From: a virus
Lineage: Duplodnaviria > Caudoviricetes
IMG/VR virus record: IMGVR_UViG_3300021431_000010
Span: 20,114-84,113 of that record
Length of the DNA stretch: 64,000 nt
Strand: one strand, 5' to 3'
A program made the position numbers and the translations under genes. This document shows positions 23,451 to 59,216 of this stretch, piece after piece (position 1 is the stretch's first letter; every line of letters begins with the position of its first letter). The notes beneath the pieces were generated by a model. The model was not told where the DNA came from and did not search any database. It saw only the letters and a program-made list of their open reading frames with translations.

Positions 23451-23461
23451 GGAGAAACAGA

Positions 23462-25294: not shown

Positions 25295-25519
25295 ATGGAA
25301 ATTAAAAATGAGGAAAAGAATGAATTAACATTAACTGAGAAGCACGATCAAGAAGTTGATATGCAATTGAAAGAGGCTAAAAGAATTGGTAAAGATGTTC
25401 TTATTGGCAGTTTCACAGCAGCTTCAGTTTCATGGTTAGGCTATCAGTTTCTACGTTATTTTAAATCATTCGTAAACGTTTTAAGCCAGTATAAGAATCA
25501 AAAGAAAGAGTCTGAATAA
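25295..25519 (+). CDS. Small membrane protein
   Basis: TM segment; ends KESE. Confidence 0.6.
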   Translation: MEIKNEEKNELTLTEKHDQEVDMQLKEAKRIGKDVLIGSFTAASVSWLGYQFLRYFKSFVNVLSQYKNQKKESE

Positions 25520-25548
25520 GACTCTTTTTGCTTTGCAAAGGAGAAAAA

Positions 25549-26400
25549 ATGAATACAGGTATTGTTTGGGATTTAGCAGGAAGATTAGTAAATATTACTA
25601 GAAAACATACTCCAGAAATTCTGGCAGGTCTCGGAATTGGAGGTTTTATCACAACAAGCGTTTTAGCTGCAAAGGCTGCTCCGAAAGCTGCAGAGAAGAT
25701 CGAAGAAGCAAAAGAAGAGCTTCAGGTTGAGGAACTTACTCCAGTTCAGACAGTTAAAACTGTATGGAAAGATTATATTCCGGCAGTAGCAACTGGTATA
25801 ACATCTACTTTATGTATTGTTGGTTCTGTCAATACAAGTCTTAAGAGAAATGCAGCACTCGCAACTGCATATGAAATGTCTAGAACAATGATGGATGAGT
25901 ATCGAGCAAAGACAATTGATATTGTCGGAGAGAAGAAAGAGCAAAAGATCAGAACTGCGATTGCACAGGATCACGTCGAAAAAAATCCACCTATGGATGA
26001 TGATATTAATGTCATTAATCCTGAAGATAGTAAAACACTTAAAATCTTAGTTCAAGATGAATTAAGTGGATTCTATAAGCTTGTTAACAATTTAGACGAA
26101 GTCAGATATGCAATAGGAAGAGGCTATGATAAGCAAGAAAAATCATTCGATGAAAGTATGAGTGAATACGAGTGGTATTGCATTCTAGAACCTCGTATTA
26201 CTGATATTTTAACTGAAACACAGATTCATAGAGCTCAAAATTCTTATTGGAGTTCAGCAACTCCATATGAAGGATTTAGCTGTGAAATTGATGAAAACAG
26301 TCTGAAGACAATAACCACTGGCAAATGGAAAGGGTATCCATGTTATTCAATAACTTATGGAAGTTATCCAAAGTACCAGGATTATTGGAGAACCTACTGA
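25549..26400 (+). CDS. Membrane-anchored phage protein (DUF6353-like), paralogue A
   Basis: KHTPEILAGLG...KRNAALATAY. Confidence 0.65.
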   Translation: MNTGIVWDLAGRLVNITRKHTPEILAGLGIGGFITTSVLAAKAAPKAAEKIEEAKEELQVEELTPVQTVKTVWKDYIPAVATGITSTLCIVGSVNTSLKRNAALATAYEMSRTMMDEYRAKTIDIVGEKKEQKIRTAIAQDHVEKNPPMDDDINVINPEDSKTLKILVQDELSGFYKLVNNLDEVRYAIGRGYDKQEKSFDESMSEYEWYCILEPRITDILTETQIHRAQNSYWSSATPYEGFSCEIDENSLKTITTGKWKGYPCYSITYGSYPKYQDYWRTY

Positions 26401-26512
26401 CTCCAAGAATTGGATCGGTGGTTTGAAAAACACTACTGGTGGTGAATGATATTTAGCTCGCGTATTTTTCATCACCTATTATGACATACATATAAATATA
26501 AGGAGGTATACT

Positions 26513-42051: not shown

Positions 42052-42604
42052 GGGAACTCATGCTTTTTTGAGTGCTTCAAGTTATCACTGGCTGAACTAT
42101 ACAGATGACAAATTGATATCTGTATTTAAGGCAAAGCTAGCGGCACAAAAAGGCACTGAGCTTCATGATTTTGCATCTAGATGTATTAAACTTCGTCAAA
42201 GGCTTCCGAAGTCTAATAAGGCTTTAAATGCTTTTGTGAACGATGCTATCGGATACGGTATGGATTCTGAGATTCCTTTATATTATTCGGCGAACTGCTA
42301 TGGAACTGCAGACGCTATTTACTTTGGCAAGCAGCGCGGTTCAGAAAGAATGATATTACGAATCCATGATTTGAAGACTGGTGACATACCAGCCAAGATC
42401 GACCAGTTATTGGTCTATGCGTCTTTGTTCTGTTTGGAGTATGGATTTAAGCCTGGTGAGATTGACATGGAATTGAGGATTTATCAAGGGAATGAAGTTC
42501 TCTTCTATAATCCGAAGCCTGAAGAAATCTTACCGATTATGGATTTAATCATTCGCTTCAGTAAGATCCTTGACGACATCAAAGCTAGGGAAGGAGTGAA
42601 TTGA
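42023..42604 (+). CDS. PD-(D/E)XK exonuclease (Cas4/RecB-like)
   Basis: HAFLSAS, GTELH, GTADAI, IHDLKTG, QLLVYA. Confidence 0.75.
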   Translation: MKWNPHSAIEGTHAFLSASSYHWLNYTDDKLISVFKAKLAAQKGTELHDFASRCIKLRQRLPKSNKALNAFVNDAIGYGMDSEIPLYYSANCYGTADAIYFGKQRGSERMILRIHDLKTGDIPAKIDQLLVYASLFCLEYGFKPGEIDMELRIYQGNEVLFYNPKPEEILPIMDLIIRFSKILDDIKAREGVN

Positions 42605-45597
42605 TATTTATGACTTATGAGAAACCGTCGTTAGACGATTTTTTAATGCATTACGGTATTGACCATATTAAAGGAACTCCTGGATCTGGCAGATATCCTT
42701 GGGGTTCTGGAGATACACCATTCCAGCATTCTGGAGATTTTCTTTCGTTCGTAACTCAGCTGAGGAAAGAAAAGCCAACATACACAGATAATGAAGAATA
42801 CATTATAAAGAATGGTGAAAAGATTAAGAATCCTGATTATGGTAAAACATTCAAAGGCGAAACCGCTGTAGCAAAGATATTAAAGATGAGCACTACAGAA
42901 TATAGGCACGCTATTACTCTTGCATCTAATCTTGATAAGATGGACAAGATTAATCGTGCTGAAGCTTTATGGAATACATACGATGAAAATGGAAAACATA
43001 AGTATGGATATTCTGAGATTGCTCGTAAAATGGGTTTGCCTAATGAATCATCTGTTAGATCACTTTTAGAGCCTTCTAGAAGAGCAAACATTGAGATATC
43101 CTTGAAGACTGCAGACTTCTTAAAAGATCGTCTTAATGAACTTTCTAAGTCCGATCCAAAAGCTATGATTGATATTGGTCCTGGTGTTGAGACTGAACTC
43201 AATATCACTAGAACTAAGCTCGATGATGCTGTTTATATTTTGGAAGGAGAAGGTTATAAGACATTTGGTGGAAGAGTTCCTAATATTACTGATCCATCTG
43301 GTGCAAGACAAACAACAATGAATGTTATTGCTACACCAGATGCGAATTGGAAAGATTTTTACGAGTATAGTCATATCAAAGGTATTAAAGATTATGAAGC
43401 TATTAACAATGGAATTGATGGATTTAAAAAGAAATTTGAATTCCCTGAGTCCATGGATTCTAGCAGATTGATGATTAGATATGCTGAAGATGGTGGTAAA
43501 GAAAAAGATGGTCTTGTTGAACTTAGAAGAAACGTAGATGATCTTTCTCTTGGTGAAAAGAATTATGCTCAGGTACGAATCCTTGTTGATGGAACTAAAT
43601 ATATTAAAGGCATGGCAGCTTATGCTATTGATCAAGATTCATTTCCACCTGGTGTTGATGTGATATTTAACACTAATAAGCATAAGGATGTTGCTAAACT
43701 TGATGTTTTAAAAGATGTTAAGAGAGACAAAATTACTGGTGAAATTGATAGAGATAATCCATTCGGTTCTTTGATTAAAGATAAAGAACAGGGTGGTCAA
43801 AGCTATTATACCGGTAAAGATGGTAAACAACATCTTAGTCTTATCAATAAAAGAGCTGATGAAGGTGACTGGGATAACTGGAAAGACACACTTTCGGCAC
43901 AGTTCTTATCGAAGCAAACAGTTCAGTTAGCAAAGAGACAGTTGAATTTAGCTGTTCTTGAAAAACAAGAAGAGTTAAAAGATATTATGAGTCTTGAAAA
44001 TAATACACTTAAAAAGTATTACTTAGATTCATTTGCTAGTGACTGCGATTCTTCAGCTGTTCATTTGACAGCAGCAGCTTTACCAAGACAGAAGTTCCAG
44101 GTTATTTTACCTATTCCGTCAATGAAAGATAATGAAATCTATGCACCTAACTATAAAGATGGTGAACAGGTAGCATTAGTTCGTTATCCACATGGTGGCC
44201 AATTCGAAATTCCAATTCTGACTGTTAATAATAAACAGAAAGATGGCGTTGCAATGATTGGCAAGAACTCAAGAGATGCTGTCGGTATTAATGCTTCTGT
44301 TGCAGAAAAGCTTTCTGGAGCTGACTTTGATGGCGATACTGTTATGGTTATCCCAACAAACAGCACTATTAGAATCAAGAATAATAACGGAAAGTCTTTG
44401 AAAGGCTTAGAAGGTTTCGAACCAAAAGAGGTTTATGGCTGCGATCCTAGTAAGACTTATGAAGATAAGAATGGTAATAAGCATTACTTTAATAAAGCAG
44501 GTTTGGAATTCAAGGTAATGAAGAACACTCAGAATGAAATGGGTCGTATTTCAAACCTTATTACAGACATGACTATTAAAGGCGCTACAGAAGATGAATT
44601 AGCAAAAGCAGTTCGTCATTCAATGGTTGTTATTGATGCAGAAAAGCATAAACTTGATTACCAGTCAAGCTACGCTCAGAATGAGATTGAACGTCTTAAA
44701 AAGAAGTATCAAGCTCATTTGGATGAAGATGGAAAAGAAGCATATGGCGCGTCAACTCTTATTTCAATGGCTAAGTCTCAGAAAGATGTAGTTAGAAGAA
44801 GAGGCCAGCCTCGAGTTAATATTAAAGGTCGTCCTGATTATGATCCATCTAAGCCAGAAGGTGCATTATTATATAAAGAAGATCCTAAAGCTAGGTACAC
44901 TATAGAGAAGGTTAATAAAAAGACTGGGGAAGTAAAGGTAATAGAAAAAACTCGTAAGCAGCCAAGCACAAAAATGGCTGAAACAGATGATGCTAGAACA
45001 TTGATCTCAGATAGAAATTCTCCAATGGAACAACTTTATGCCTCCTATGCCAATACAATGAAAAGTATGGCTAACCAGGCTAGAAAGCTTAGTTATGAAA
45101 CAAAAGGATCTGAATATAGTAGTAATGCAGCAAAGAAATACGCTAACGAGGTACGAGAACTAGAGAATCAGTTAGATCTGTCTACTAAGAATAAACCTAG
45201 AGAAAGACAGGCTCAAGTTATTGCTACTGTATCATTTAAAGCAAAGGTTCAAAGTAATCCAGACATTAAGAAGGAAGACAAGAAGAAACTTAGACAGATA
45301 GAGCTTACCAAGGCACGGTCTAGGGTAGGGGCCCAGAGGAATGAAATTACCATTACCGATGAAATATGGGAGGCTATCCAGGCTGGAGCAGTGCATGCGA
45401 ACACTTTAAGAAAAGTTTTAGACCATACGGACACGGATAAGTTAAGGGAGAGAGCTACTCCGAGTTCAAGAAAAACAATGACTGACGCCATGAAGAGTAG
45501 AGCAAAAGCTATGGCACAAAGTGGAAAAACAAATGCAGAAATTGCGGCAGCTCTTGGAGTTTCTTCTAGTACAATTGCTAAAGCTATTAAAGAATGA
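42601..45597 (+). CDS. Single-chain two-barrel RNA polymerase (YonO/QDE-1-like)
   Basis: RYPH, LSGADFDGD (44317-44337), GRISNLITD, HSMVVIDAEK; HTH motifs near both termini. Confidence 0.8.
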   Translation: MIFMTYEKPSLDDFLMHYGIDHIKGTPGSGRYPWGSGDTPFQHSGDFLSFVTQLRKEKPTYTDNEEYIIKNGEKIKNPDYGKTFKGETAVAKILKMSTTEYRHAITLASNLDKMDKINRAEALWNTYDENGKHKYGYSEIARKMGLPNESSVRSLLEPSRRANIEISLKTADFLKDRLNELSKSDPKAMIDIGPGVETELNITRTKLDDAVYILEGEGYKTFGGRVPNITDPSGARQTTMNVIATPDANWKDFYEYSHIKGIKDYEAINNGIDGFKKKFEFPESMDSSRLMIRYAEDGGKEKDGLVELRRNVDDLSLGEKNYAQVRILVDGTKYIKGMAAYAIDQDSFPPGVDVIFNTNKHKDVAKLDVLKDVKRDKITGEIDRDNPFGSLIKDKEQGGQSYYTGKDGKQHLSLINKRADEGDWDNWKDTLSAQFLSKQTVQLAKRQLNLAVLEKQEELKDIMSLENNTLKKYYLDSFASDCDSSAVHLTAAALPRQKFQVILPIPSMKDNEIYAPNYKDGEQVALVRYPHGGQFEIPILTVNNKQKDGVAMIGKNSRDAVGINASVAEKLSGADFDGDTVMVIPTNSTIRIKNNNGKSLKGLEGFEPKEVYGCDPSKTYEDKNGNKHYFNKAGLEFKVMKNTQNEMGRISNLITDMTIKGATEDELAKAVRHSMVVIDAEKHKLDYQSSYAQNEIERLKKKYQAHLDEDGKEAYGASTLISMAKSQKDVVRRRGQPRVNIKGRPDYDPSKPEGALLYKEDPKARYTIEKVNKKTGEVKVIEKTRKQPSTKMAETDDARTLISDRNSPMEQLYASYANTMKSMANQARKLSYETKGSEYSSNAAKKYANEVRELENQLDLSTKNKPRERQAQVIATVSFKAKVQSNPDIKKEDKKKLRQIELTKARSRVGAQRNEITITDEIWEAIQAGAVHANTLRKVLDHTDTDKLRERATPSSRKTMTDAMKSRAKAMAQSGKTNAEIAAALGVSSSTIAKAIKE

Positions 45598-47015: not shown

Positions 47016-47375
47016 ATGGATCAAAGTATTTTAGATTCGATTAAAGATGTAATCGGAATTGATCGAAGAAATACGGACTTTGATAGAGATTTAATAATTG
47101 CTATTAATGCAGTACTATTTATTGTCTACCAGGAAGGCTTATCTGATGAAGCTCACACAATCAAAGACAATACATCTAAGTGGTCCGATATTTTAATTAA
47201 AGGTCAGCCGATAAATTTAAGAACTCTCATTACTTGGGCAGGATTAAAAACTAAATCTATTTTTGATCCGCCGACTTCATCCACTTTAGCAACAGCTTTA
47301 AAAGAAACTATTGATGAATTGGAGTGGAGAGGTTTTATTACACAAAATTATGTTGGAGAGATAGGGGAGATCTAA
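47016..47375 (+). CDS. Putative head-tail connector protein
   Basis: SILDSIK..FD..IIAIN..FDPP..ELEWR pattern. Confidence 0.5.
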   Translation: MDQSILDSIKDVIGIDRRNTDFDRDLIIAINAVLFIVYQEGLSDEAHTIKDNTSKWSDILIKGQPINLRTLITWAGLKTKSIFDPPTSSTLATALKETIDELEWRGFITQNYVGEIGEI

Positions 47376-47378: not shown

Positions 47379-49142
47379 ATGCCGTTATCTAATACTGCCG
47401 TACCGATATATTACGGTAGATTTAGAGATTCCGTAATGAGAGGAGAGACAAAAATTAATAAGTACATCGCTATGGAGATGAACCGTATCGATGATCTTAT
47501 TAGTAATCCAGGAGTCTACTATGATCCTGATGCAATGAATGGCTTTGTTGCTTTTTGCGAGAATGAATTAACTCTTACAAATGGCGGCGATGTTAAAATG
47601 CTTGAGACATTTAAGCTTTGGTCAGAACAGATTTTTGGATGGTATTACTTTGTTGAACGTAGTGTATGGGTTCCAGATCCTAACGGACGAGGAGGTCACT
47701 ATGTTAGCAAATATTTTAAGAAACGCCTAATTACAAAACAATATTTAATTATTGCCAGAGGTGCTGCAAAATCTATGTATGCAGCTTTTCTTCAGGCATA
47801 TTTTCTGATCTGTGATCGTAGTGCTAATGGTCAAACAGTTACAGCTCCAACTATGGCTCAAGCTGATGAAGTGCTATCTCCGATCCGAACGGCTATTAAT
47901 CGATCTAGAGGCCCTATGTTCAAGTTCATGACCTACGGATCTTTACAAAACACAACCGGTAATAGGGCTGATAGAGTAAAGCTTGCTTCTACTAAGAAAG
48001 GTATTCAGAATTTTATTACTGGATCTACGATTGAAGTAAAACCTATGAGCCGTGATAAGCTTCAGGGTTATCGTGTTAAGATCGCAACAGTCGATGAATG
48101 GCTCTCTGGAGATACAAGGGAAGACGTCATTGGTGCTATTGAGCAATCTTGTACTAAGGAGCAAGGTGGTATTGAAGAAGTAAACGACTATTTGATTGTT
48201 GCCACTTCTTCGGAAGGTACAGTTCGAAATGGCCCAGGTGATACTATCAAAATGGAGCTAATTGACATACTTAAAGGAGATTACATCAACCCGAGAGTAT
48301 CGATCTGGTATTACAGATTGGATTCTGTTGAAGAGGTTGATGATCCTGCTATGTGGGTTAAAGCGAATCCGAATCTTGGTATTACAGTAAGTTATGAAAC
48401 ATACCAGTTGGATAAAGAACGAGCTGAGAAATCTCCATCAAATAGAAACGATATTCTGGCTAAGAGATTTGGAATCCCTTTGGAAGGTTATACATATTAC
48501 TTTCCATACGAGGAAACCTTGCCACATCATTTTAGATCATTTGATAAAATGCAGTGTTCTCTTGGAGCAGATATGTCTCAGGGTGATGACTTCTGTGCGT
48601 TTACATTTTTGTTTCCACTTAGAGGTGACGCCTTTGGCGTAAAGACTAGAAACTATATAAGCTCATTTACTTACGATAAATTACCGTCAGCGCTTAAGAG
48701 TAAATACGATGATTTTGTCAAAGAAGGCAGTCTGATGATCATGGATGGAACAATTTTAGACATGATGGAAGTCTATGATGACTTAGATAGATTCATAGAT
48801 GTTCATGGCTACGATGTTAACTGTTTTGGATTTGACCCGTATAATGCAAAAGAATTTGTTGAGCGTTGGGAAACAGAGCATGGACCATTTGGAGTTGAAA
48901 AAGTTATTCAGGGTGCTAGAACAGAATCAGTCCCATTAGGAGAATTAAAGAAGCTTTCTGAACAGAGGCTTCTTTTATTTGATGAATTAATCATGAACTT
49001 TGCAATGGGTAATTGTATTACTTTGGAAGATACTAATGGAAACCGGAAGTTATATAAGAAACGTTCCGATCAGAAAATAGACTGCGTAGCAGCAATGCTT
49101 GACGCTTTTGTTGCGTTTAAACATAACAAAGATAGTTTTTAG
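47379..49142 (+). CDS. terL: Terminase large subunit
   Basis: IARGAAKS Walker A, VDEW Walker B, GADMSQGDD nuclease, KIDCVAA. Confidence 0.9.
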   Translation: MPLSNTAVPIYYGRFRDSVMRGETKINKYIAMEMNRIDDLISNPGVYYDPDAMNGFVAFCENELTLTNGGDVKMLETFKLWSEQIFGWYYFVERSVWVPDPNGRGGHYVSKYFKKRLITKQYLIIARGAAKSMYAAFLQAYFLICDRSANGQTVTAPTMAQADEVLSPIRTAINRSRGPMFKFMTYGSLQNTTGNRADRVKLASTKKGIQNFITGSTIEVKPMSRDKLQGYRVKIATVDEWLSGDTREDVIGAIEQSCTKEQGGIEEVNDYLIVATSSEGTVRNGPGDTIKMELIDILKGDYINPRVSIWYYRLDSVEEVDDPAMWVKANPNLGITVSYETYQLDKERAEKSPSNRNDILAKRFGIPLEGYTYYFPYEETLPHHFRSFDKMQCSLGADMSQGDDFCAFTFLFPLRGDAFGVKTRNYISSFTYDKLPSALKSKYDDFVKEGSLMIMDGTILDMMEVYDDLDRFIDVHGYDVNCFGFDPYNAKEFVERWETEHGPFGVEKVIQGARTESVPLGELKKLSEQRLLLFDELIMNFAMGNCITLEDTNGNRKLYKKRSDQKIDCVAAMLDAFVAFKHNKDSF

Positions 49143-49152: not shown

Positions 49153-49596
49153 ATGGGTTATAAGTTATATAGGTCTGAAGAATTAGCTCATGCTGCTAAA
49201 GGATCTAGTTGGTCAAATCATAAATATATAAATAAATTTTTTAAGAATGGTAAATGGGTCTATGTATATAATCCTGTAAAAAATAGTCCTATGTCTAATG
49301 CTAGCCAGAACCAGTATCGGAAAACCGATGAATACTATAAAGGTGAAAATGGAAAGATGGTCCATTATACCGTTAAGACAAGAAACGGTAAAAACTGGTT
49401 AAGCTCATCAATTCAAGTTAGATCAGGAAATGATGTAACTGTTTATAAGGATAAGGGACGAATTGCACAAGGAATTGAAAAATCAGCTTCTAAAGGAAAA
49501 AGTTTTATTGAAAAACTTGCTAAGAAGAGAAGAAAAACAAAATCTAAGGATAATAGCCGTATTAAGGTAACAAGTCATAATACAACATTAGGGTAA
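49153..49596 (+). CDS. Basic protein with N-terminal ELAH tag
   Basis: EELAHAAKGSSWSNHKY. Confidence 0.7.
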   Translation: MGYKLYRSEELAHAAKGSSWSNHKYINKFFKNGKWVYVYNPVKNSPMSNASQNQYRKTDEYYKGENGKMVHYTVKTRNGKNWLSSSIQVRSGNDVTVYKDKGRIAQGIEKSASKGKSFIEKLAKKRRKTKSKDNSRIKVTSHNTTLG

Positions 49597-49605
49597 TGAA
49601 TTCTT

Positions 49606-50598
49606 ATGAATGAGTTTATCAGGTCTCCGAAAAGCAGTAAGTCAAAACTTTTAGCGAATATTAATAGAGGACTGAAATTAACTGCAAACGGTAAAGGATT
49701 AAAAGAGTTAAATATTTTAATCAATTGGAAAAACTCTATTCAATTAATGCTAAATCAAGTTTCAGAGGATAATCCTGCTAAATTATCCGATCTTAAGCGA
49801 AAACAATTTCCAATGAGTATGAATGACGATATGCAGCGAGTTAATCCTTATCTGAAAGATGATCAAGCGTTTACTATTAATTGTGCTTATTGTTCAGCGG
49901 CATATGATCTTCGAAGAAGAGGCTTTGATGTAGAAGCAGACGATTATCATAATAATGCAGATATTGATTCTAGTATTAATAGCATATTCGAGATCTATTC
50001 TTGGTGGACTCATAAAAACGCTATTCCATTTTATAGCAATAAAGAATTGAAACAGAAGCGTTTTGACGAATTGTATCCAGGATATAGGTATATGAGTGCT
50101 TCTGATTATTCTTGTTCTGATATAGAAGCAGAACTAATTAGTCAGGGTAACAACGCAAGAGGACAGATTAGTTTAATGTGGACTTTTGGTGGCGCTCATT
50201 CGTTAATTTATGAAGTATTAAATGGAAAAGTAATTTTAAGAGACTGCCAGCATAGTAAGATCAGGCATTTAAGTGAATACTATGGTTATTTAGACAGACT
50301 ATATTATTTTCGTACAGATAACGAAGAGCCTACTGAACGTATTTTAAAATGTGTGAAGAATAAACTATTCGACACAACTTGCCCAAAGGATAATGACTAT
50401 GCGTTACTATCGTTAGACTGTTTAGCTAGTCAGTTTAGACTAAACAATTTTGCAGTTACAAGGTACAAAACTTTTATAAAGGTCCATCTTAAGCAGAACA
50501 GTTTATGCTATCTGTTGATTTATCAAAATGGATCTATTAAATACATAAACGCCATTGAACACGAAAGGAAGAGTTCATGGAAGAATACAAGGAAATAA
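49606..50598 (+). CDS. Papain-fold (Cys-His-Asp) toxin/deamidase-like protein
   Basis: NCAYCSAAYDLRRRG, GGAHSL, RDCQ. Confidence 0.6.
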   Translation: MNEFIRSPKSSKSKLLANINRGLKLTANGKGLKELNILINWKNSIQLMLNQVSEDNPAKLSDLKRKQFPMSMNDDMQRVNPYLKDDQAFTINCAYCSAAYDLRRRGFDVEADDYHNNADIDSSINSIFEIYSWWTHKNAIPFYSNKELKQKRFDELYPGYRYMSASDYSCSDIEAELISQGNNARGQISLMWTFGGAHSLIYEVLNGKVILRDCQHSKIRHLSEYYGYLDRLYYFRTDNEEPTERILKCVKNKLFDTTCPKDNDYALLSLDCLASQFRLNNFAVTRYKTFIKVHLKQNSLCYLLIYQNGSIKYINAIEHERKSSWKNTRK

Positions 50599-50816
50599 TT
50601 AATAATTCATTTCCGTCATACATAATTGACTCTGCTTATGACTATGGTGATATTTTAGTATTTAATTTAATACCAAATGATTATGTAAACAAGCATCAAG
50701 ATGAAGGTCCTTTAAATAGGAGTTTTTCTATTAACAAAGTAACAAAGGAAATCAAAGCATTCTTTCCGTTTGATATTCCTTTAGAACAGTATAAAACCGG
50801 AAAGAAAATCATTTGA
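50577..50816 (+). CDS. Small protein, candidate immunity partner
   Basis: Overlaps the end of the papain-fold gene. Confidence 0.45.
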   Translation: MEEYKEIINNSFPSYIIDSAYDYGDILVFNLIPNDYVNKHQDEGPLNRSFSINKVTKEIKAFFPFDIPLEQYKTGKKII

Positions 50817-50832
50817 GGAGAGGTAATTATTT

Positions 50833-51498
50833 ATGGCATATGAATTGTATCATTCCGCAAAAGGATCTGGCTGGAAGAACCATAAGTATGTTTCCAAGAA
50901 AACTATTAACGGTAAAGTACGGTATTTTTATGGAAATAACGGTGCATCTAAGTCTAAAGAAGGCTATTCCGATTTTGGTGATTGGTTTGGCTCAGATGAA
51001 GCTGACGAATTAACAAAGTCTGGTCTTAGACTTGCTTTTGCTAAAAATAGTTATGAAGACGCATTAAAAAGTAAAAAAACTGCTCTTGGAGAAACTAGCA
51101 CTTTAAAAGCCAAATACACTTTGGCTAAGAAAGATTACGACAAAAAGAAAGCTGCGTATGATAAGACGCCAATGGGCCAGATTGAACAGGTAGGAACAGA
51201 AGCTGCAAAAGCAGTAAAAAAGGGTGCTTCCTGGGTAAAAAAGCAAGCAAAGAAAGCAGTAGCTACATATAAGCGTAAAAAAGCTGGTGCTAATGTTGAT
51301 GTAACTAGTCCTGTAAAAACACCAAAACCAATGCCGAGTGCTAAGAGGGCTAAACCTAGAACAGAGAAAAAATACGGTACTGTGTTTAATCGAATAAAAA
51401 ATGCTAATAAGCATGACCTAGCAAATGCGTATTCAAAGTCTCAGAAAGCTGCTAAAAAAGCAGTAAATGATTATTTTAATAAAAAATATGGCGAATAA
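50833..51498 (+). CDS. Basic protein with ELYH tag
   Basis: YELYHSAKGSGWKNHKY. Confidence 0.7.
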   Translation: MAYELYHSAKGSGWKNHKYVSKKTINGKVRYFYGNNGASKSKEGYSDFGDWFGSDEADELTKSGLRLAFAKNSYEDALKSKKTALGETSTLKAKYTLAKKDYDKKKAAYDKTPMGQIEQVGTEAAKAVKKGASWVKKQAKKAVATYKRKKAGANVDVTSPVKTPKPMPSAKRAKPRTEKKYGTVFNRIKNANKHDLANAYSKSQKAAKKAVNDYFNKKYGE

Positions 51499-51519
51499 GT
51501 AGTTTTACGGAGGTATGCT

Positions 51520-52029
51520 ATGCAGAATTATTATATGACTGCTTATGGCGGATACGAACTTTACCATTCTGGAATTAAAGGAATGAAGTGGGGGATTCGA
51601 CGTTATCAGAATGAAGACGGTTCTCTGACTGAAGAAGGTAAAAAACGTTACGCCAAATTAACAGGCAAAATTGAAAAACAACAGAGAAAAATTGAGAAAT
51701 GGCAGGCCAAGGTTGATAGGCAATCTGGAAAATATTTAAGAGCTGAGAAGAAAAGAGCTAAAGCAGCAAAACTTAAAAATCGTGCTTTAAATTCATGGTT
51801 TATGAGTGATGCTAAGAGAGCTAAATTAAGTTTGAAAGCTGATCGGCTTAATGCAAAAGCAGATAAAATGCAGAATAGTACTCTTAAGAATGCTGCCAAG
51901 ATTAGACGTGCTCAGTCTTTGATTAATAAGTATTCTCGCAAGATTGCTAAGTTTGCTCCAGATTCAGTATACGCCGGATCTCAGTTTATTAACGGCCAGT
52001 ATCAGAAGAAATTATCAGATATCAGATAG
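51520..52029 (+). CDS. Basic protein with ELYHxGIxGMKWG motif
   Basis: ELYHSGIKGMKWGIRRYQNEDGSLT. Confidence 0.75.
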   Translation: MQNYYMTAYGGYELYHSGIKGMKWGIRRYQNEDGSLTEEGKKRYAKLTGKIEKQQRKIEKWQAKVDRQSGKYLRAEKKRAKAAKLKNRALNSWFMSDAKRAKLSLKADRLNAKADKMQNSTLKNAAKIRRAQSLINKYSRKIAKFAPDSVYAGSQFINGQYQKKLSDIR

Positions 52030-52041
52030 GAGAATTTCAAA

Positions 52042-52506
52042 ATGGCAGAATATGAACTCTATCATCATGGTATACAAGGTATGAAATGGGGCATTCGTCG
52101 TTACCAGAATGAAGACGGTACTTATACAGAAGCTGGTAAAAAAAGACGTGCCAAGACAGAAAAAGAAAAAGCAACTGCTGATACGTATATCGATCTTTAC
52201 GGCGGAAAAGCTAATGCATCAAGGGCAGTAGCCACGAAAGGTGCGGTTGGTTCATCGGCTTTAGGAATGTTGGCATCTGCTTTTGGCGGATTATCACCGA
52301 TATTAGCTAACGCTGCATATATGGCGTCACCAGTTGCTATCGAAGGTTTAGCGACTGCTCTTGGAGCAGCAGCTGGACTTGTTCCGGCAGCGGTTTGTTT
52401 AGCTGGATCAGCATATATAGGACATAAAACTTCAGTAACGTTAGCAAATATTAAAGATTCTGAAAAAGGTCATGATTCAGTTGTCCTGAACAAGAATAAA
52501 AAATGA
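52042..52506 (+). CDS. ELYHHGI-motif protein with hydrophobic hairpin
   Basis: ELYHHGIQGMKWGIRRYQNEDG followed by Ala/Gly-rich TM-like segments. Confidence 0.75.
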   Translation: MAEYELYHHGIQGMKWGIRRYQNEDGTYTEAGKKRRAKTEKEKATADTYIDLYGGKANASRAVATKGAVGSSALGMLASAFGGLSPILANAAYMASPVAIEGLATALGAAAGLVPAAVCLAGSAYIGHKTSVTLANIKDSEKGHDSVVLNKNKK

Positions 52507-52526
52507 TTGAATAAGGAGGACCTAAA

Positions 52527-53405
52527 ATGGAGTATTATTTAACAAATGACGAGTTATACCATCATGGGATCCTCGGAATGAAATGGGGTGTAAGACGATA
52601 TCAGAATGCTGATGGGACTCTTACCGCAGAAGGCAAAAGACGTTATCGTCTTGATGAAAACGGTAAATACGTTAAACGTACTCGAGCAGAGCGTAAGGAA
52701 TACGATCGAAAAGTAAAGGCCGCTCAAGCTGCTGCAAAAGCTAAAAAGAATAAATCACCAAGAGAAAAGCCTATTAATGAATTAACTGATAAACAGCTTC
52801 AGAAGTATATCGAGCGTATGCGAAATGAGGAAACTGCAGCAAAACTCAGAAATAGTGTGAACCAGTTGGATCCAAAACCTCTTTCAAAAGGTGAACAGTT
52901 TGCAAAGCTTATGATGGATAAGGTTGTTATGCCTATGGCTCAGGATGCAGGTAAAAAGCTTATTGACGCAATGGTTCAAAATATGAATAAATCTGAACCA
53001 GATAAATATGAACAAGCTAAAAAAGAGGCAGAGTATTGGAAAAATATTAATACTGCAAAACAGCAAAAAGATCAATATGATCGAAACGTTGCAAATGACA
53101 GTAATAAAGACAAAAACAAAAAAGAAGGATCCGATAATAAAAAAAGTAATAAAGCTAAAGATTTTATTAAAAGCTTTATGCTAGATGATGACGATGAACC
53201 TTCTTCGTCTGGACCAAAAGCAGAGTTTGTCAAAGGATCTGAAAAAACAAAAAAGAAAGTAAAACCAAATTCGAATGATGCAAAAGGTCCTGAAGTTGTT
53301 GATGCTGAATTCAAAGTTAAGAATGAAGAATGGGTCAACGATTTTGTAGCTGGTTTTTATCAAACACCATTGCCTCAATTACCGTATGATCCAAATAGAA
53401 AATAG
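52527..53405 (+). CDS. ELYHHGI-motif protein
   Basis: ELYHHGILGMKWGVRRYQNADG. Confidence 0.75.
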   Translation: MEYYLTNDELYHHGILGMKWGVRRYQNADGTLTAEGKRRYRLDENGKYVKRTRAERKEYDRKVKAAQAAAKAKKNKSPREKPINELTDKQLQKYIERMRNEETAAKLRNSVNQLDPKPLSKGEQFAKLMMDKVVMPMAQDAGKKLIDAMVQNMNKSEPDKYEQAKKEAEYWKNINTAKQQKDQYDRNVANDSNKDKNKKEGSDNKKSNKAKDFIKSFMLDDDDEPSSSGPKAEFVKGSEKTKKKVKPNSNDAKGPEVVDAEFKVKNEEWVNDFVAGFYQTPLPQLPYDPNRK

Positions 53406-53416
53406 AAATAATCAAA

Positions 53417-53800
53417 ATGGAGAGATTTGTATTCTATAATCCAAATCCAAAAGGCATAAAAGTTGGTGATTGTGTTATTCGAGGATTATCTAAATTACTA
53501 GATTTATCTTGGGATAAGACATATACCGAAGTTATGCTAAAAGGATTTGAGATGAAAGATATGCCGTCAGCTAATAATGTATGGGGATCGTATCTTAAAT
53601 CAAAAGGGTATATGAGATTTAATATTTCAAATACCTGTCCAGATTGTTACACAGTAAAACAGTTCTGTGAGGATAATCCAAACGGAACTTTTCTTTTGGC
53701 CACAGGAGAGCATGTAGTGGCTGTAAAAGATGGTTTTTACTATGATGCATGGGATTCCGGAGATGAAGTTCCTATTTATTATTGGAGAAAGGAGAGATAA
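53417..53800 (+). CDS. Conserved hypothetical, possible Cys peptidase fold
   Basis: NPNP..GDCVIR...HVVAV...YYDAWDSG. Confidence 0.6.
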   Translation: MERFVFYNPNPKGIKVGDCVIRGLSKLLDLSWDKTYTEVMLKGFEMKDMPSANNVWGSYLKSKGYMRFNISNTCPDCYTVKQFCEDNPNGTFLLATGEHVVAVKDGFYYDAWDSGDEVPIYYWRKER

Positions 53801-53803
53801 AAA

Positions 53804-54226
53804 ATGGCTTATTATAATCCAAATTATACTCAGCCAACACCTAATGCCTATGGCAGTACTAACTTAAATACTAGTGGTTTCCAACCGTATAATTCTGTTC
53901 CACCAACTATCGTTTTTGTAAGCGGAGAAGCAGGAGCAAACAACTATCCGGTTGCGGCAGGAAATACCGTGTATTTAATGGACTTGAATTCCAATCAATT
54001 TTGGATCAAATCAACAGCTGCTAATGGCACTCCTCAACCTTTAAGGTCATTCTCATTCACTGAGACAACACCAAAAGTTGAGGCTGTTAGTTCTGAAAGT
54101 TACTTTGTAACTAAGAAGGAACTTGATGACCTAAAAACATACTTGGATAATCAATTTCAAGGAATTAGAAATCAGCTTTATAAAGCTAAGAAAGGACCTT
54201 TAAATGATAAATCCGATGTTAAATAA
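53804..54226 (+). CDS. Conserved hypothetical
   Basis: VSGEAGANNYPVAAGNTVYLMD. Confidence 0.65.
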   Translation: MAYYNPNYTQPTPNAYGSTNLNTSGFQPYNSVPPTIVFVSGEAGANNYPVAAGNTVYLMDLNSNQFWIKSTAANGTPQPLRSFSFTETTPKVEAVSSESYFVTKKELDDLKTYLDNQFQGIRNQLYKAKKGPLNDKSDVK

Positions 54227-54401
54227 TTTAGGCCAGTTGATGAAGAATTTTAATGATTTTGCTCAGCAATATCAAAGTCAGAATCAGAATATGACCCCGC
54301 AGCAAAAGGTGCAGGAGCTTCTTAATTCTGGCCAGATGACTCAGCAAGAGTTTAATCAGCTTAGAGAAATCGCAAATCTTATTACTGGGCGAAATTATTA
54401 G
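54204..54401 (+). CDS. Q/N-rich small protein
   Basis: PQQKVQELLNSGQMTQQEFNQL. Confidence 0.65.
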   Translation: MINPMLNNLGQLMKNFNDFAQQYQSQNQNMTPQQKVQELLNSGQMTQQEFNQLREIANLITGRNY

Positions 54402-54433
54402 AAGATATTTATTAAGGAGGTAAATTTCGCACT

Positions 54434-55111
54434 ATGGCGCTTACTGATTACGGTTCTGGTTTATCTGCAGCAGATGTTGCAGCTGTAACTGGCGGTAACA
54501 ACGGAAATGGTTTTGGATTTAATGGTGATGGAGCTTGGTGGCTTTTAGTATTATTCCTGTTCATGATGAACGGAAATACTTTTGGTCGCGGAGGATATGG
54601 AGATGGCGGTATGCAAAAAGGTTTTGATCAGCAGGCAGTTATGAGTGGTATTAATGGTCTCACTTCTGCTGTTTCTGCCGGATTTGCTAATGCCGAAGTT
54701 TCACGTTGCAATGGCAATATGAATACTCTTCAGGCTTTAAATGGTATTACGTCTAATCTTGCTGATATTAAATACACTGTTGCTACAGAGAATTGTGCTG
54801 ATAGAAACGCATTAACCGATGCTCTTAGAGATGTCATTGCATCTAACACAGCTAATACTCAGGCTATTCTTGATAAGATGTGCCAGCAGGAAATCGAAGC
54901 GAAGAACGAAACAATTGCTCAGCTTAGGACTCAGCTTAATATGCAGGCTCTTGCAGCATCTCAGAATGCTCAGACAGCTCAGATTTTAGCTAATAATGCT
55001 GCTCAGACTCAGGCTTTAGAGCAGTATTTAAATCCTACACCGATCCCTGCTTACACTGTACCAAATCCAAATTGCTGTAATTCTGGCTGGGGCAACTGCG
55101 GCTGCAATTAG
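54434..55111 (+). CDS. Gly/Asn-rich membrane protein with coiled coil and Cys-rich tail
   Basis: GAWWLLVLFLF, TQAILDKMCQ, NCCNSGWGNCGCN. Confidence 0.7.
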   Translation: MALTDYGSGLSAADVAAVTGGNNGNGFGFNGDGAWWLLVLFLFMMNGNTFGRGGYGDGGMQKGFDQQAVMSGINGLTSAVSAGFANAEVSRCNGNMNTLQALNGITSNLADIKYTVATENCADRNALTDALRDVIASNTANTQAILDKMCQQEIEAKNETIAQLRTQLNMQALAASQNAQTAQILANNAAQTQALEQYLNPTPIPAYTVPNPNCCNSGWGNCGCN

Positions 55112-55121
55112 GAGGTGGCAT

Positions 55122-55586
55122 ATGGCTGAATACAGTGCAAATGCCACGCAGACAGTAGCTCAAGGGGGCGTTGTAGTTTTTACAGACGCACCAGTGCCAT
55201 GCGCTAGAGGATTTGTCCGGCATAGAGATGGCTCTGGAAATTTTTTATTGAGCGGATGGATTCCGAATAGATGTGGCTGCTGTTGCAAGAAACAAGAAGC
55301 CAAGTATTTAGTTGACTTTGGCGCTAATATTGCCATTCCTGAAGGTGGAACAGTTGAACCAATTTCCTTAGCTTTATCTATCGATGGTTCAATTATTCCG
55401 GCTAGTGAAATGGTAGTTACACCAACGGAAGCTAATGCGTATTTCAATGTTAGTAGAGCTATTAATGTTGAAGTATGGAATGGCTGCTGTGAAAACGTTT
55501 CTGTTGTGAACACTAGTTCACAGTCTATTCTTGTAGAGAACGCAAATATTATTCTTACAAGACCTGATCTTGTAGTTAGCCGATAA
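55122..55586 (+). CDS. Beta-sandwich (BclA-C/C1q-like) protein
   Basis: Beta-rich, YLVDFGANI...ENANIILTR; Cys cluster. Confidence 0.5.
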   Translation: MAEYSANATQTVAQGGVVVFTDAPVPCARGFVRHRDGSGNFLLSGWIPNRCGCCCKKQEAKYLVDFGANIAIPEGGTVEPISLALSIDGSIIPASEMVVTPTEANAYFNVSRAINVEVWNGCCENVSVVNTSSQSILVENANIILTRPDLVVSR

Positions 55587-55600
55587 GGAGGAGTGGAACA

Positions 55601-56011
55601 ATGGATGAATCATTAGAAAAGCTCAGCAAACTTGTCGGAAAAGAGCTTGATAGAATTACTGCAAAGAATGATCTTACACCTGCTGAATTAGAAATGGCAA
55701 CGAAAGCAGTTTGCCTTTTAGAAAAAATCAAAATGGTGGAAGAACATGATTTAGATGCTTCATATTCTATGAATAATATGAGATCTAATAGGTATTATGG
55801 ACGATATAACAGTATGAATAACGGAAATTCATATCACGATTATTATCCAGATAGATCTTATGATTATTCAATGGATAGAGGCTATAGCGGTCATAGTGTA
55901 AAAGATAGAATGATTGCTCAACTTGAGAGCAACATGATGGATGGAGCCAAAAGTGAAAGCGAGAGACGAGTAATTGAGTCTCTTATTAGTCAATTAGGTT
56001 CTACAAACTAA
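55601..56011 (+). CDS. Hypothetical with YS-rich linker
   Basis: RBS AAGGAGG. Confidence 0.65.
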   Translation: MDESLEKLSKLVGKELDRITAKNDLTPAELEMATKAVCLLEKIKMVEEHDLDASYSMNNMRSNRYYGRYNSMNNGNSYHDYYPDRSYDYSMDRGYSGHSVKDRMIAQLESNMMDGAKSESERRVIESLISQLGSTN

Positions 56012-56038
56012 AAGTAAAAAGAGGAGGTAAAGCCCTAA

Positions 56039-57367
56039 ATGCCAAAATTCGGCGATAGGCTAATCCATGCATGGAATGCCTTCATGAATAGGGATCCGAC
56101 TCCTGAACCTTATATGTATGACTATGGTCAGGTTTCCTATTCATCATATAATCCATATAGGCATAGATTATCTCGTGGAAACGAGAGGACCATAGTCACG
56201 TCTATTTACAATCGTATTGCTTTAGATGTAGCGCAGATTAGATTCGAGCATGTAAAACTTGATGCTAACGGCTATTTTGTAAGCAAAATGGATTCAAGTT
56301 TAAATGATTGCTTATCTATTTCAGCAAATAAAGATCAGACTGGAAGGGCCTTTATTCAGGATGTCGTTATGTCGATGTTTGATGAAGGCACAATAGCAAT
56401 TGTACCAATTGATACATCAATAGATCCTGATAAGGGGTCTTTTGATATACTCTCTTTACGTGTCGGGAAGATCGTTGGATGGTCTCCCGACAATGTAAAG
56501 GTCAATGTTTACAACGATCGGACTGGAGGCCATGAAGAATTATGGTTCGCTAAGAAGAACGTTGCTATCATTGAAAATCCGCTTTATTCAATAATGAACG
56601 AACCAAACTCAACGTTGCAGCGATTAATTCGTACTTTAACGTTGATGGATGTCGTTGATGAACAAAGCGGCTCTGGCAAACTGGATATGATTATTCAGTT
56701 GCCTTACTTAGTTAAAACTGAAACAAAAAGGCAGCAAGCGGAACAGCGTCGAAAAGATATTGAAATGCAGCTTACCGGAAGTAAATACGGCATAGCATAT
56801 GTTGACGCTACTGAAAAGATCACTCAGCTGAATCGTCCTTTGGAAAACAATCTTTTATCACGTATTGAATACTTGACAAACATCTTATACGGGCAGTTAG
56901 GGATCACTACGGCAATATTAGATGGCACAGCAGACGAACAGACGATGATTAACTATTATTCGCGAACTATTGAGCCTATTGTTTCGGCTATTGCAGACGA
57001 GATGAAACGAAAGTTTCTGACAAAGACCGCGATTACACAACATCAGTCAATAGCGTTCTTTAGAGATCCATTCAAGCTTGTCCCGACATCTAAACTTGCT
57101 GAGTTAGCAGATAAGTTCACAAGAAACGAAATCATGACTTCTAACGAGTTTAGACAGATTGTTGGCTTATTGCCTTCTGCAGATCCTAGAGCTAATGAAC
57201 TTAGAAATAAGAACATTAACCAGGCAAGCGGTGAGCAGTTCCCAGACATGACAAATGAAGAAGGAATAGGTGATGAATTCTCTGAACAGCCTCAGGTGGA
57301 TCAAACAGAACAAGAAGAACCGATTGAGGAAAAGAGCTTGAGTGAATTAACGGTGTCTGAAATTTAG
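56039..57367 (+). CDS. Portal protein
   Basis: IYNRIALDVA, ENPLYSIMNEPNSTLQRL, RNEIMTSNEFRQ; position before capsid. Confidence 0.85.
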   Translation: MPKFGDRLIHAWNAFMNRDPTPEPYMYDYGQVSYSSYNPYRHRLSRGNERTIVTSIYNRIALDVAQIRFEHVKLDANGYFVSKMDSSLNDCLSISANKDQTGRAFIQDVVMSMFDEGTIAIVPIDTSIDPDKGSFDILSLRVGKIVGWSPDNVKVNVYNDRTGGHEELWFAKKNVAIIENPLYSIMNEPNSTLQRLIRTLTLMDVVDEQSGSGKLDMIIQLPYLVKTETKRQQAEQRRKDIEMQLTGSKYGIAYVDATEKITQLNRPLENNLLSRIEYLTNILYGQLGITTAILDGTADEQTMINYYSRTIEPIVSAIADEMKRKFLTKTAITQHQSIAFFRDPFKLVPTSKLAELADKFTRNEIMTSNEFRQIVGLLPSADPRANELRNKNINQASGEQFPDMTNEEGIGDEFSEQPQVDQTEQEEPIEEKSLSELTVSEI

Positions 57368-57389
57368 TGAAGGAGTTGAAAAATTCAAA

Positions 57390-59216
57390 ATGGCTAAGAA
57401 AAAATACGATTTTTGGGGATGGGCCACTAGAAACGATTTAAAATGCTCCGATGGAAGAACAATTCGTCACAACGCTTTTAAAGATTGTGATGGGTTGACA
57501 GTTCCACTTGTTTGGAATCACCAGCATAATGATCCGGATAACATTTTGGGCCATGCGCTTCTAAAGAACACTGATGAAGGTGTTAAAGCATATGGCTTTT
57601 TTAATGAACTTCCGAAATCACAAAGAATTAAAGCAATTTTACAGCATGGTGACATTGCGAGTTTGTCCATTTTCGCTAATGGGTTAAAGCAAACTGCTGA
57701 AGGCGATGTAGTGCATGGAGTTATTAGAGAAGTAAGCTTAGTTCTTGCTGGTGCAAATCCGGGAGCTTCAATCGAGTATGTCATGGCTCACAGTGCTGAC
57801 GAAGATCCTGTAGCTGTTGGCGCTGAAATTTATACTGGTGAAGATTTGTTTGTTGAGCATAGCGATAAATCTGATGAAATCGAAATTGTCGATGATCCTG
57901 AAGAAGTTGAAGAAAAATCAGAAGAAGAGGCAAAAGAAGAACCTAAAGAAGAGCTTGCTCATGCTGACGATCCACAAGCTAAATCAAATGAAGATGGAGA
58001 GGAAAAAGAAATGGCAGACAAAAAAGAAGATATGACTGTTCAGGATGTCCTGGATTCAATGACTCCGGAGCAGAGAAAAGTTACTGAATACCTTGTTGGC
58101 GAAGCTTTAGCTTCTGCTGGCGCTGAAGATGAAGAAGAGGATGAAGAAATGAAGCATAATGCATTTGACAATGATGAAGTCATCGAAAACGATGGCATGA
58201 CCGAAGAAATTTTTACAGCTTTACAGGATGCAAAGAGATACGGTTCAGTTAAGGAATCTTTATTAGCTCATGGCTTGAACAGCGATGAAGTTCTTGTTCA
58301 CAGTGTAGAACATCTTGACTACTTGGCACCTGAATACAGAAATGTTTCAAACGATATTCCGTTTGTAAACACCATTCCTAATGGATGGATTTCCGTAATC
58401 AACAACGGTGTTCATAAGACTCCGTTTGCTAAGATCAAGATGATGCACGCTGACATTTCTCCGGCTACTGCTAGAGCTAAAGGTTATGTCAAGGGTACTA
58501 AGAAGGTTGAAGAAGTCTTCAAGCTGTTAAAGAGAAAAGTTGATCCGACGACTATTTATAAGCTCCAGAGCTTTGACCGTGATGATGTTATTGATATTAC
58601 TGATATCGATATGATCGCATGGGTTAAGAAAGAAATGCGCATTAAGCTGGATGAAGAAAGGGCACGTGCTTATATTTTCGGTGATGGCAGATCTACTACT
58701 GATCCTGATAAGATCAATGAACAAAACATTATCCCAGTTGTTAAGGATACAGAAGAAAATCTTTATGCAATGGCATATACCGTTACACCAGCAGAAGGTG
58801 AAACATTAGCTCATGCTGTTACTAATCAGATGGTTAAGTCTCTTGATGACTATGAGGGTTCTGGTAACATCACTGCATTCGTTAGAACTGATATCGTTTC
58901 TGACATTCTGTTAATGGAAGACAAGATTGGCCAGAGACTTTACAAGGGCATGAACGAAGTTGCTTCTGCTATGTCTGTTGACCGTGTTGTTAAGGTTCCG
59001 ACTAGCGTTATGCCAGAAGATGTTTACGCTGTTGCTCTCGATCTGAACGACTACAATGTTGGTATGAACAAGGGCGGTGAGGTATCTCTGTTCGACGATT
59101 TCGATATCGACTACAACAAGATGAAGTATTTGATTGAAACTCGTTGCTCTGGTGCTTTAGTACTTCCTCATTCTGCTATCGTTCTGAAAGCAGCTGACGG
59201 TACAAACGAAGGTTAG
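57390..59216 (+). CDS. Prohead protease - major capsid protein fusion (HK97-type)
   Basis: N-terminal VPLVWNHQH...LSI...EVSLV..GANPGA protease, acidic linker, capsid body. Confidence 0.85.
   Translation: MAKKKYDFWGWATRNDLKCSDGRTIRHNAFKDCDGLTVPLVWNHQHNDPDNILGHALLKNTDEGVKAYGFFNELPKSQRIKAILQHGDIASLSIFANGLKQTAEGDVVHGVIREVSLVLAGANPGASIEYVMAHSADEDPVAVGAEIYTGEDLFVEHSDKSDEIEIVDDPEEVEEKSEEEAKEEPKEELAHADDPQAKSNEDGEEKEMADKKEDMTVQDVLDSMTPEQRKVTEYLVGEALASAGAEDEEEDEEMKHNAFDNDEVIENDGMTEEIFTALQDAKRYGSVKESLLAHGLNSDEVLVHSVEHLDYLAPEYRNVSNDIPFVNTIPNGWISVINNGVHKTPFAKIKMMHADISPATARAKGYVKGTKKVEEVFKLLKRKVDPTTIYKLQSFDRDDVIDITDIDMIAWVKKEMRIKLDEERARAYIFGDGRSTTDPDKINEQNIIPVVKDTEENLYAMAYTVTPAEGETLAHAVTNQMVKSLDDYEGSGNITAFVRTDIVSDILLMEDKIGQRLYKGMNEVASAMSVDRVVKVPTSVMPEDVYAVALDLNDYNVGMNKGGEVSLFDDFDIDYNKMKYLIETRCSGALVLPHSAIVLKAADGTNEG

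Follow-up and report, generated by a model that had tools for sequence, protein, structure and literature searches.

The window analysed here is a stretch of 64,000 nucleotides from a virus of the Caudoviricetes (Duplodnaviria), namely bases 20114–84113 of the 84,113-bp virus record IMGVR_UViG_3300021431_000010. The record has direct terminal repeats and is rated complete, and the + strand carries 123 of the 129 called open reading frames (ORFs) of the 84-kb genome. The subject of this report is the head module. About 7 kb of small genes separate the gene of the large terminase subunit (terL) from the portal gene, and five of these small genes encode otherwise dissimilar proteins with a common N-terminal tag. 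The portal gene is followed by the gene of a protease–capsid fusion, whose linker holds a series of similar histidine sites. The features are listed below with window positions (RNAP, RNA polymerase; pI, isoelectric point).

42601–45597, + strand: YonO-like single-subunit RNAP with a C-terminal helix-turn-helix (HTH) (phrog_4291, 1086 bits; DFDGD motif)
47016–47375: connector protein (PF24829)
47379–49142, + strand: terL (ORF call), the upstream border of the candidate cargo gene block
49153–49596, + strand: tagged protein of 147 residues, pI 10.2; type A tag at 49174–49278, EELAHAAKGSSWSNHKY...GKWVYVY
49606–50598, + strand: papain-fold (Gln_amidase-like) protein without the tag, a possible effector (PF15644, E 4.8e-4, 21.6 bits, cut-off 24.1)
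50833–51498, + strand: tagged protein of 221 residues, pI 10.0; type A tag at 50836–50940
51520–52029, + strand: tagged protein of 169 residues, pI 10.3; DUF7211 tag at 51550–51657
52042–52506, + strand: tagged protein of 154 residues; DUF7211 tag at 52048–52155 (PF23847, 30.9 bits)
52527–53405, + strand: tagged protein of 292 residues; DUF7211 tag at 52545–52652 (PF23847, 39.0 and 42 bits)
56039–57367, + strand: portal protein (PF04860, 69.9 bits)
57390–59216, + strand: protease–capsid fusion of 608 residues (phrog_3270, E 1e-179; PF05065; TIGR01554)

A sequence-only reading of the window had noticed an L-x-H peptide at the start of five proteins, and the quoted peptides were found at the starts of the five tagged ORFs. 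Apart from the tag, these proteins have little in common, as had been stated, and the best pairwise BLASTP E-value is 0.01. The common opening is real, but the tag is longer than first described. It covers about 35 residues with the consensus ELYHxGIxGMKWGxRRYQNxDGxLTxxGKxRY. The phi-x-H motif (phi, hydrophobic residue) closes the variable N-terminal stretch of the tag, and the invariant positions are His, Gly and Trp rather than the basic residues. All five tagged proteins are basic (pI 9.4–10.3). The ATG start of the ORF 49153–49596 is preceded by a GGAGG site.

The tags of the 51520, 52042 and 52527 proteins match Pfam DUF7211 (PF23847), a 25-position model with a gathering score of 27 bits; the 51520 protein is borderline, with 26.7 and 29.0 bits in two scans. 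The 49153 and 50833 proteins carry a diverged tag, called type A here (ELxHxAKGSxWxNHKY...GKxxYxY). For these two proteins no PF23847 match was found at E-values up to 1, and no Pfam or PHROG match was found. An iterative search for the type A tag across the viral loci described below found one locus only, with two ORFs, and no sixth copy of the tag was found within the genome. When the tag was folded alone using 39 aligned sequences, the mean predicted local distance difference test score (pLDDT) was 58, with values below 50 across YHHGILGM. As no confident structure was obtained, the tag would act like a linear motif, basic and without its own fold.

The 608-residue fusion consists of three parts.

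57390–57791, + strand: prohead serine protease domain, residues 1–134 (PF04586, 20.0 bits; phrog_3270)
57792–58301, + strand: acidic scaffold-like linker, residues 135–304, pI 4.1; candidate cuts after His134, 157, 191, 256, 294 and 304
58302–59216, + strand: HK97-fold major capsid domain, residues 305–608 plus stop (PF05065, TIGR01554)

The six sites that had been pointed out in the linker were confirmed at these six His residues. The pattern [LIVMF]-x-H-[SAGN] fits 13 of the 17 His residues of the fusion, whereas among the 403 His of the other 128 called ORFs it fits 32 (Fisher p = 7.6e-11). Residues 132–310 hold six sites among seven His; none of 10,000 shuffles reached six, and the shuffle mean was 0.35. 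Four further matches lie inside the protease domain and three inside the capsid domain. Tag-bearing viral loci gave 63 fusion homologues, in which the pattern fits 456 of 940 His; for the other ORFs of at least 150 residues at these loci, the figure is 267 of 3436. In the linkers of 38 homologues (less than 90% identical), the pattern fits 152 of 202 His, while the shuffles gave a mean of 10.0, a standard deviation of 3.1 and a maximum of 22. Even among the 51 His of poorly conserved linker columns, 22 match the pattern. The conserved site columns correspond to His134 (invariant), His157, His256, the column at Glu272, His294 and His304 of the window, and the linker consensus is (E/D)-x-(L/M/V/I)-(K/S/E/A)-H-(S/A/N/G)-(D/A/E). 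The observation of common tags and histidine sites is confirmed and lies far beyond chance.

The capsid domain scores above the cut-offs (PF05065, 31.1 against 24.2 bits; TIGR01554, 30.5 against 27.5). The protease domain lies below the curated cut-offs (PF04586, 20.0 against 21 bits; TIGR01543, 25.6 against 59), and the PF04586 alignment spans profile positions 36–154 of 165. Both phrog_3270 and phrog_3244 ('head maturation protease') match the fusion, and His44, His46, His109 and Ser116 are invariant in 38 fusion sequences. Judging from its profile matches, the protease domain is a distant relative of the HK97-family prohead serine protease (Peptidase_S78). The linker is acidic, with 58 Asp or Glu against 14 Lys or Arg.

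In the AlphaFold2 (AF2) model of the fusion, residues 4–133 form a confident protease domain (pLDDT about 90), residues 135–214 are disordered, helical stretches are seen at 217–244 and 272–302, and the capsid fold begins at about residue 330. The VIA comparison of the model with the capsids of the gene transfer agent (GTA), HK97, T5 and D3 gave Z of 16–18; the values for 1ohg_A are Z 17.1, root-mean-square deviation (r.m.s.d.) 3.7 and 247 aligned, and those for 2fs3_A are Z 16.5, r.m.s.d. 5.5 and 265 aligned. Encapsulin shells are also among the fold matches. HK97 residues 104–383 are placed on model residues 296–605. The mature N-termini of HK97 (residue 104), T5 (161), D3 (115) and phiXacJX1 (107) align to model residues 293–300, and adjoin LLAH294↓G and VLVH304↓S, where the arrow marks the candidate cut. 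A PDB sequence search with the fusion gave nothing at E-values up to 0.01, and the mature N-terminus is thus visible in no solved relative. A complex of the tag with the protease domain and with the late linker and capsid domain was predicted with a score of 0.01 and a mark of 0.32, which speaks neither for nor against binding.

A similar site is found in proteins that carry the tag more than once. The matches of the tag profile were counted as 50%-identity representatives, and amount to 26,579 proteins at E-values up to 0.001 and 12,263 at E-values up to 1e-10. Each of the 150 best matches carries 2–5 copies of the tag, and the longest of these proteins has 1,569 residues. The proteins used for the junctions were the top-scoring matches, so that they are multi-tag by selection. 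For 222 of the 262 internal tag copies in 251 proteins, a further His lies no more than 30 residues upstream, mostly at a distance of 10–11 residues, and the consensus of the junction is (L/I/A/V/M)-(K/R)-H-S-(D/E)-(I/L), that is, phi-K-H-S-D. When 131 proteins representing 50%-identity clusters were used, 152 of 171 internal tags had a His 3–28 residues upstream, and for 87 of the 171 a strict site was present. Strict sites number 90 in 4,599 junction residues and 29 in 61,971 other residues, a 42-fold enrichment. On comparison of the two consensus sequences, the junction sites and the linker sites are the same kind of site.

In the protein P0064, two tagged genes are visibly fused head to tail, which indicates that each tag belongs to the module downstream of it. 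A survey of the domains that carry the tag in relatives, which had been proposed, showed unrelated enzymes including GNAT acetyltransferases, papain-fold proteins and an 'RNA ligase'. In 73 multi-tag proteins, the other Pfam matches are GNAT acetyltransferases (4, 2 and 1), Gln_amidase (2), CW_7 (1) and a few singletons, and most modules have no Pfam match.

According to these results, phi-x-His with a small residue after it has the properties of a processing site, as supported by comparison. The enrichment in the linker, the position of the mature start and the polyprotein junctions all agree with the processing site proposed from the sequence, but the tag's own His differs from it.

The tag is linked to the head module. 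For the viral loci, the 80 best tag-bearing matches were taken; the genome loci are 43 bacterial or metagenome-assembled genome (MAG) loci of at least 15 kb, mostly from Clostridia. A tblastn search with a 45-residue tag found 12 phage records only; as such a short query is too insensitive, profile searches on the fetched loci were used for co-occurrence. Homologues of terL are present in all 80 viral loci, and the protease domain of the fusion in 67; the other 13 loci are only 4.3–11.9 kb long. The 220 tags of the 80 viral loci are mostly located between terL and portal (119) or upstream of terL (77), with 8 downstream of portal. In the 43 genome loci, the protease was found in 38, terL in 41, portal in 38 and RNAP in 32. 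At least four of the five protease-less genome loci belong to this phage type, and their head module is degraded or lies beyond the range covered; three of the five have the RNAP, one has only terL, and the fifth (L158) lacks all marker genes.

Phage records with homologues number 244 for the fusion and 250 for the RNAP. The record counts of the two are equal in the top four host genera, Arthrobacter (95), Gordonia (55), Streptomyces (54) and Lactococcus (13), and phages of Faecalibacterium, Rhodococcus, Curtobacterium and Microbacterium are likewise among the records. A megablast search with the head region gave no match among phage records. A preprint describes a supercluster common to phages of Actinobacteria and Firmicutes, whose signature is an RNAP-like HTH protein (10.1101/842583). 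The capsid–protease fusion was noted previously in Arthrobacter phage clusters AM and AU (PMC5513430). Tagged genes were identified in cultured relatives as follows.

Faecalibacterium phage FP_oengus: gp69
Lactococcus phage P092: gp07 and gp08
Rhodococcus phage ReqiPepy6: gp015–gp021, seven consecutive genes between terL and portal
Gordonia phage Nithya: 18 and 19, with an internal copy in 16 ('RNA ligase')
Arthrobacter phage Argan: 6, 8 and 9 (an acetyltransferase)
Streptomyces phage TaidaOne: 7, 9, 10 (an acetyltransferase with two tags) and 11

In the fusions of cultured relatives, the His residues that fit the pattern are 6 of 12, 9 of 14, 9 of 24, 8 of 15, 8 of 22 and 7 of 21. The ReqiPoco6 depositors remarked 'similar at amino terminus' among the tagged genes, so the resemblance was noticed before, without a function. 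In TaidaOne (2624–3130 of its locus), the annotated start of gene 7 falls within the tag (MKWGVRR), and the true start is probably further upstream. In four actinophage loci (L088, L093, L094 and L095, the last being TaidaOne), an extra gene lies between portal and fusion, and its product has the N-terminus phi-x-H-E-Y-D-P-x-K-A-x-E-Y-Y; the window has no counterpart of this gene.

Lactococcus phage 1706 has orf7 (462 residues) with two DUF7211-like tags and one type A module, and the type A module follows SLAH↓S and VILH↓S. The orf7 product is deposited as 'structural protein', and so is the RNAP homologue, orf75 (EU081845); ReqiPoco6 gp106 copies the label by similarity. The proposed packaging of the tagged proteins and the RNAP is consistent with these two depositor labels, which are database annotation. 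Both labels are said to derive from virion mass spectrometry by Garneau and colleagues in 2008.

From its DFDGD motif and phrog_4291 match, the polymerase is a YonO-like or crAss gp66-like two-barrel RNAP; PF05183 gives 21.2 bits, below the cut-off of 23.8. Its N-terminal motif (about 42634–42741) reads DDFLMHYGI...SGRYPWGSGDTPFQH↓SGDF. The opening pointed out in the sequence-only reading is present and reads DDFLMHYGI...GRYPWG, but it has only about 13 residues in common with the tag. According to hhalign, the similarity is limited to 13 columns around the His (E 0.0019, probability 14%), and the PF23847 match is 18.2 bits over positions 3–13 only, below the cut-off. Thus, the RNAP has a short His-centred element, not the whole tag. 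This element is well kept, since all of the 12 aligned RNAP N-termini show phi-x-H-(Y/S)-G, then SGRYP(W/Y)GSG...P-x-Q. By the PF23847 score, the type A tags and the RNAP N-terminus are not members of DUF7211, yet they would act like the tag. The RNAP is probably packaged in the head too.

A second His motif of the RNAP, P-F/Y-Q-H-S-G-D-F, is located at 42700–42741 of the window (residues about 34–47) and is found in 9 of 12 homologues. It resembles the junction site and could end a propeptide of about 44 residues. When the RNAP motif was searched as a portable tag, ten matches in shorter proteins were found; the seven examined were N-terminal pieces of RNAP, one joined to the upstream gene, and a portable role of the motif is not supported. 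On the + strand of the window at 6953–26484, 15 copies of a cassette are located ahead of small early genes. In the cassette, a short hairpin and its T-run are followed by the conserved sequence ATTTTTC-N7-CT-N-TTATGA, which immediately precedes the ribosome-binding site; 15 copies are observed against 2.47 expected, and the maximum in 100 shuffles is six. Each cassette is a candidate unit of a terminator and a phage promoter, and the phage RNAP may be the enzyme that reads it.

The portal N-terminus RLIHAW, which had also been noticed, fits the site pattern. It lies within a conserved helix, R-L-x-x-A-W-N-A-F, but only 25 of 48 distinct N-termini have the His, and Asn, Arg, Lys or Ser takes its place in the other 23. 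The portal site was rejected for this reason.

The gene at 49153 and the papain-fold gene at 49606 share a reading frame. Between them are a tandem TAA TGA and three sense codons, and read-through from the first gene into the second is ruled out by the two tandem stops. The Gln_amidase domain sits inside two of the 73 multi-tag proteins of relatives. The 52042–52506 protein has a long hydrophobic stretch rich in Ala and Gly after the tag (about residues 60–125), and tagged proteins of relatives show comparable hydrophobic tails, which suggests membrane insertion after ejection. The small genes at 53804–55586, in the interval between terL and portal, have no family match; the 54434–55111 product is Gly-rich and has a Cys-rich C-terminus, the 55122–55586 product has a CGCCC cluster, and N-termini resembling those of these genes occur in locus L158. 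Elsewhere, small proteins with the common N-terminal motif YTKQTWxxGDVITEEKLNHIEDG are encoded downstream of the tail genes (window 2463–6685 and G000 18550–18915), and the sole large ORF of the minus strand is located at 7449–8522 (357 residues).

In phage T4, internal proteins carry an N-terminal capsid targeting sequence (CTS) that is removed by the prohead protease, and gp21 cuts at L/I-x-E. We presume, with a probability of roughly 0.6, that the system described here is analogous to T4 CTS and gp21, namely, that the tag directs head cargo and that the prohead protease cuts after His. The tagged proteins would be internal head proteins. The fusion would build the procapsid with the protease domains and acidic linkers facing inwards, and the tag would recruit the basic proteins into it. 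The fused HK97-type serine protease would cut after His at phi-x-H↓(S/A/G/N). The cuts would remove the protease and the linker, the acidic linker would be chopped into peptides of 10–65 residues, and the freed capsid protein of about 304 residues would start at Gly295 or Ser305. In the relatives, cuts at phi-K-H↓S-D about 10 residues upstream of each tag would split the polyprotein modules. The cargo would stay in the head and leave with the DNA, and the ejected RNAP would transcribe the early genes. The tag's own L-Y-H-(H/Y)-G may be cut, may be a slow substrate, or may be a docking element only.

Several points weigh against this mechanism. The case for the cuts, although plausible, is comparative. 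A small residue had been expected after the His of the tag, but 273 of 289 copies have His, Tyr, Trp or Phe there. Since the conserved part of the tag lies largely downstream of its His, the tag would remain on the cargo, unlike the T4 leader; a removable leader of the T4 type, as in the sequence-only reading, is not the obvious interpretation. The papain-fold protein lies within the tagged block and has no tag. The similarity between RNAP and tag is short and weak. No strict upstream site is present for 84 of the 171 internal tags. In the fusion, His55, 86 and 109 are inside the folded protease and His134 is at its edge; the conservation of these residues, perhaps that of His134 as well, may reflect catalysis or structure. 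Relatives do not retain the three matches of the capsid domain. The 'structural protein' labels of 1706 are the depositors' annotation. Finally, the loci were chosen as best matches to the query, which biases the samples towards one phage lineage.

A rival explanation is that the tag is a DNA- or portal-binding handle of internal head proteins, which would enter with or on the DNA or the portal as proteins of the SPP1 gp7 type do; the tag His would then bind and not be cut, and the protease would be uninvolved in loading. In favour of this are the strong basicity of the tag and of its carriers, the location of the genes between terL and portal, a P1' residue in the tag that differs from the one in the linker sites, and the lack of a confident fold for the tag alone (pLDDT 58). 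Such a handle leaves unexplained both the phi-K-H-S-D ahead of internal tags and the common consensus of the junction and capsid linker sites, and the invariant positions of the tag are not the basic ones. We regard this explanation as unlikely.

Up to seven tagged genes are consecutive, and descent rather than a signal would be the reason for a common N-terminus if the five genes were tandem paralogues of an assembly- or lysis-associated factor outside the virion. A few carriers have CW_7 cell-wall-binding repeats, and the ReqiPoco6 depositors noted amino-terminal similarity only. The protein bodies are unrelated, however, and the tag is present on unrelated enzymes such as GNAT acetyltransferases, a papain-fold domain and an 'RNA ligase'. 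Furthermore, it is repeated 2–5 times in single proteins, and 1706 orf7 is deposited as a structural protein. Paralogy without a signal is more doubtful than a binding handle.

It is highly improbable that phi-x-H-small is a structural or metal-binding feature of the capsid precursor family, with any maturation cut elsewhere, because most sites lie in the disordered, poorly conserved linker, where even non-conserved His fit (22 of 51), the pattern recurs at the polyprotein junctions of unrelated proteins, and sites flank the start of mature HK97-type capsid proteins, although several matches are invariant within or beside the folded protease domain and the literature searches gave no prohead protease cutting after His.

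The mechanism of head-cargo tag and after-His protease was compared with known systems. As in T4, an N-terminal peptide is common to otherwise unrelated proteins, which here would be internal head proteins, the candidate site has a hydrophobic P3, any P2 and a fixed P1, and the scaffold would be chopped into small peptides. T4 differs in several respects. Here P1 would be His instead of Glu, most of the roughly 35 residues of the tag follow its His, the protease forms an HK97-type domain of the capsid fusion, and the phages are siphovirus-like with Gram-positive hosts.

The prohead protease gp245 of SPN3US, a phiKZ-related phage, cleaves at A-x-E, favours Ser at P1' and cuts each propeptide several times, and its substrates include ejection proteins. 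The P3-x-P1 layout with Ser at P1' and the multiple cuts resemble the candidate sites described here. The P1 and P3 residues differ; the propeptides of SPN3US are 20–254 residues long and have no single common tag, and the protease is a separate gene of a jumbo phage.

The virion RNAPs of N4 and of crAss-like phages and the YonO-like RNAPs are likewise single-subunit DxDGD-type enzymes encoded beside late or structural genes, for which injection is expected as the start of early transcription; packaging of the present RNAP is suggested by the database label of the 1706 homologue and by the tag-like N-terminus. Pfam DUF7211 covers three of the five tags. Its model misses the other two and the RNAP, no function is assigned to the family, and the junction site and the linkage to the head module are not in the entry name. 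Polyvalent proteins of phages and conjugative elements, reportedly described by Iyer and colleagues in 2017, are strings of unrelated effector domains delivered with DNA, and GNAT and papain-fold domains are found in the relatives here. In the present case each module has the same tag and a His junction site, and the window has separate genes. The cargo-loading peptides of encapsulins are short and bind the interior of an HK97-fold shell; they are usually C-terminal, of another sequence and without a protease.

A wider interpretation is possible, and we hold it only tentatively. In a large siphovirus-like lineage of Gram-positive hosts (gut Clostridia phages, Lactococcus 1706-like phages and many actinobacteriophages), a portable tag of 35 residues may load arbitrary effectors and the RNAP. 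The tag may be a slow substrate or pseudo-substrate docking on the capsid-borne protease, which would have a new after-His specificity, and the injected polymerase may read the 15 repeated early-gene cassettes. The literature searched contains no account of the tag or of an after-His prohead protease, and 'DUF7211' is absent from it; a search for 'GMKWG' returned one unrelated paper only. Prohead proteases are not known to cut after His.

If the mechanism is true, a function would be assigned to a very large family of unknown function (26,579 clusters), and the odd gene block between terminase and portal in the phage supercluster would be accounted for. A new cleavage rule, after His, would be predicted for an HK97-type prohead protease. 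The predicted injected proteins would be acetyltransferases, a papain-fold enzyme, an RNA-ligase-like enzyme and the RNA polymerase. With the tag as a ready handle, foreign proteins could then be loaded into the heads of phages that infect Gram-positive bacteria, in the way that the T4 sequence serves in T4.

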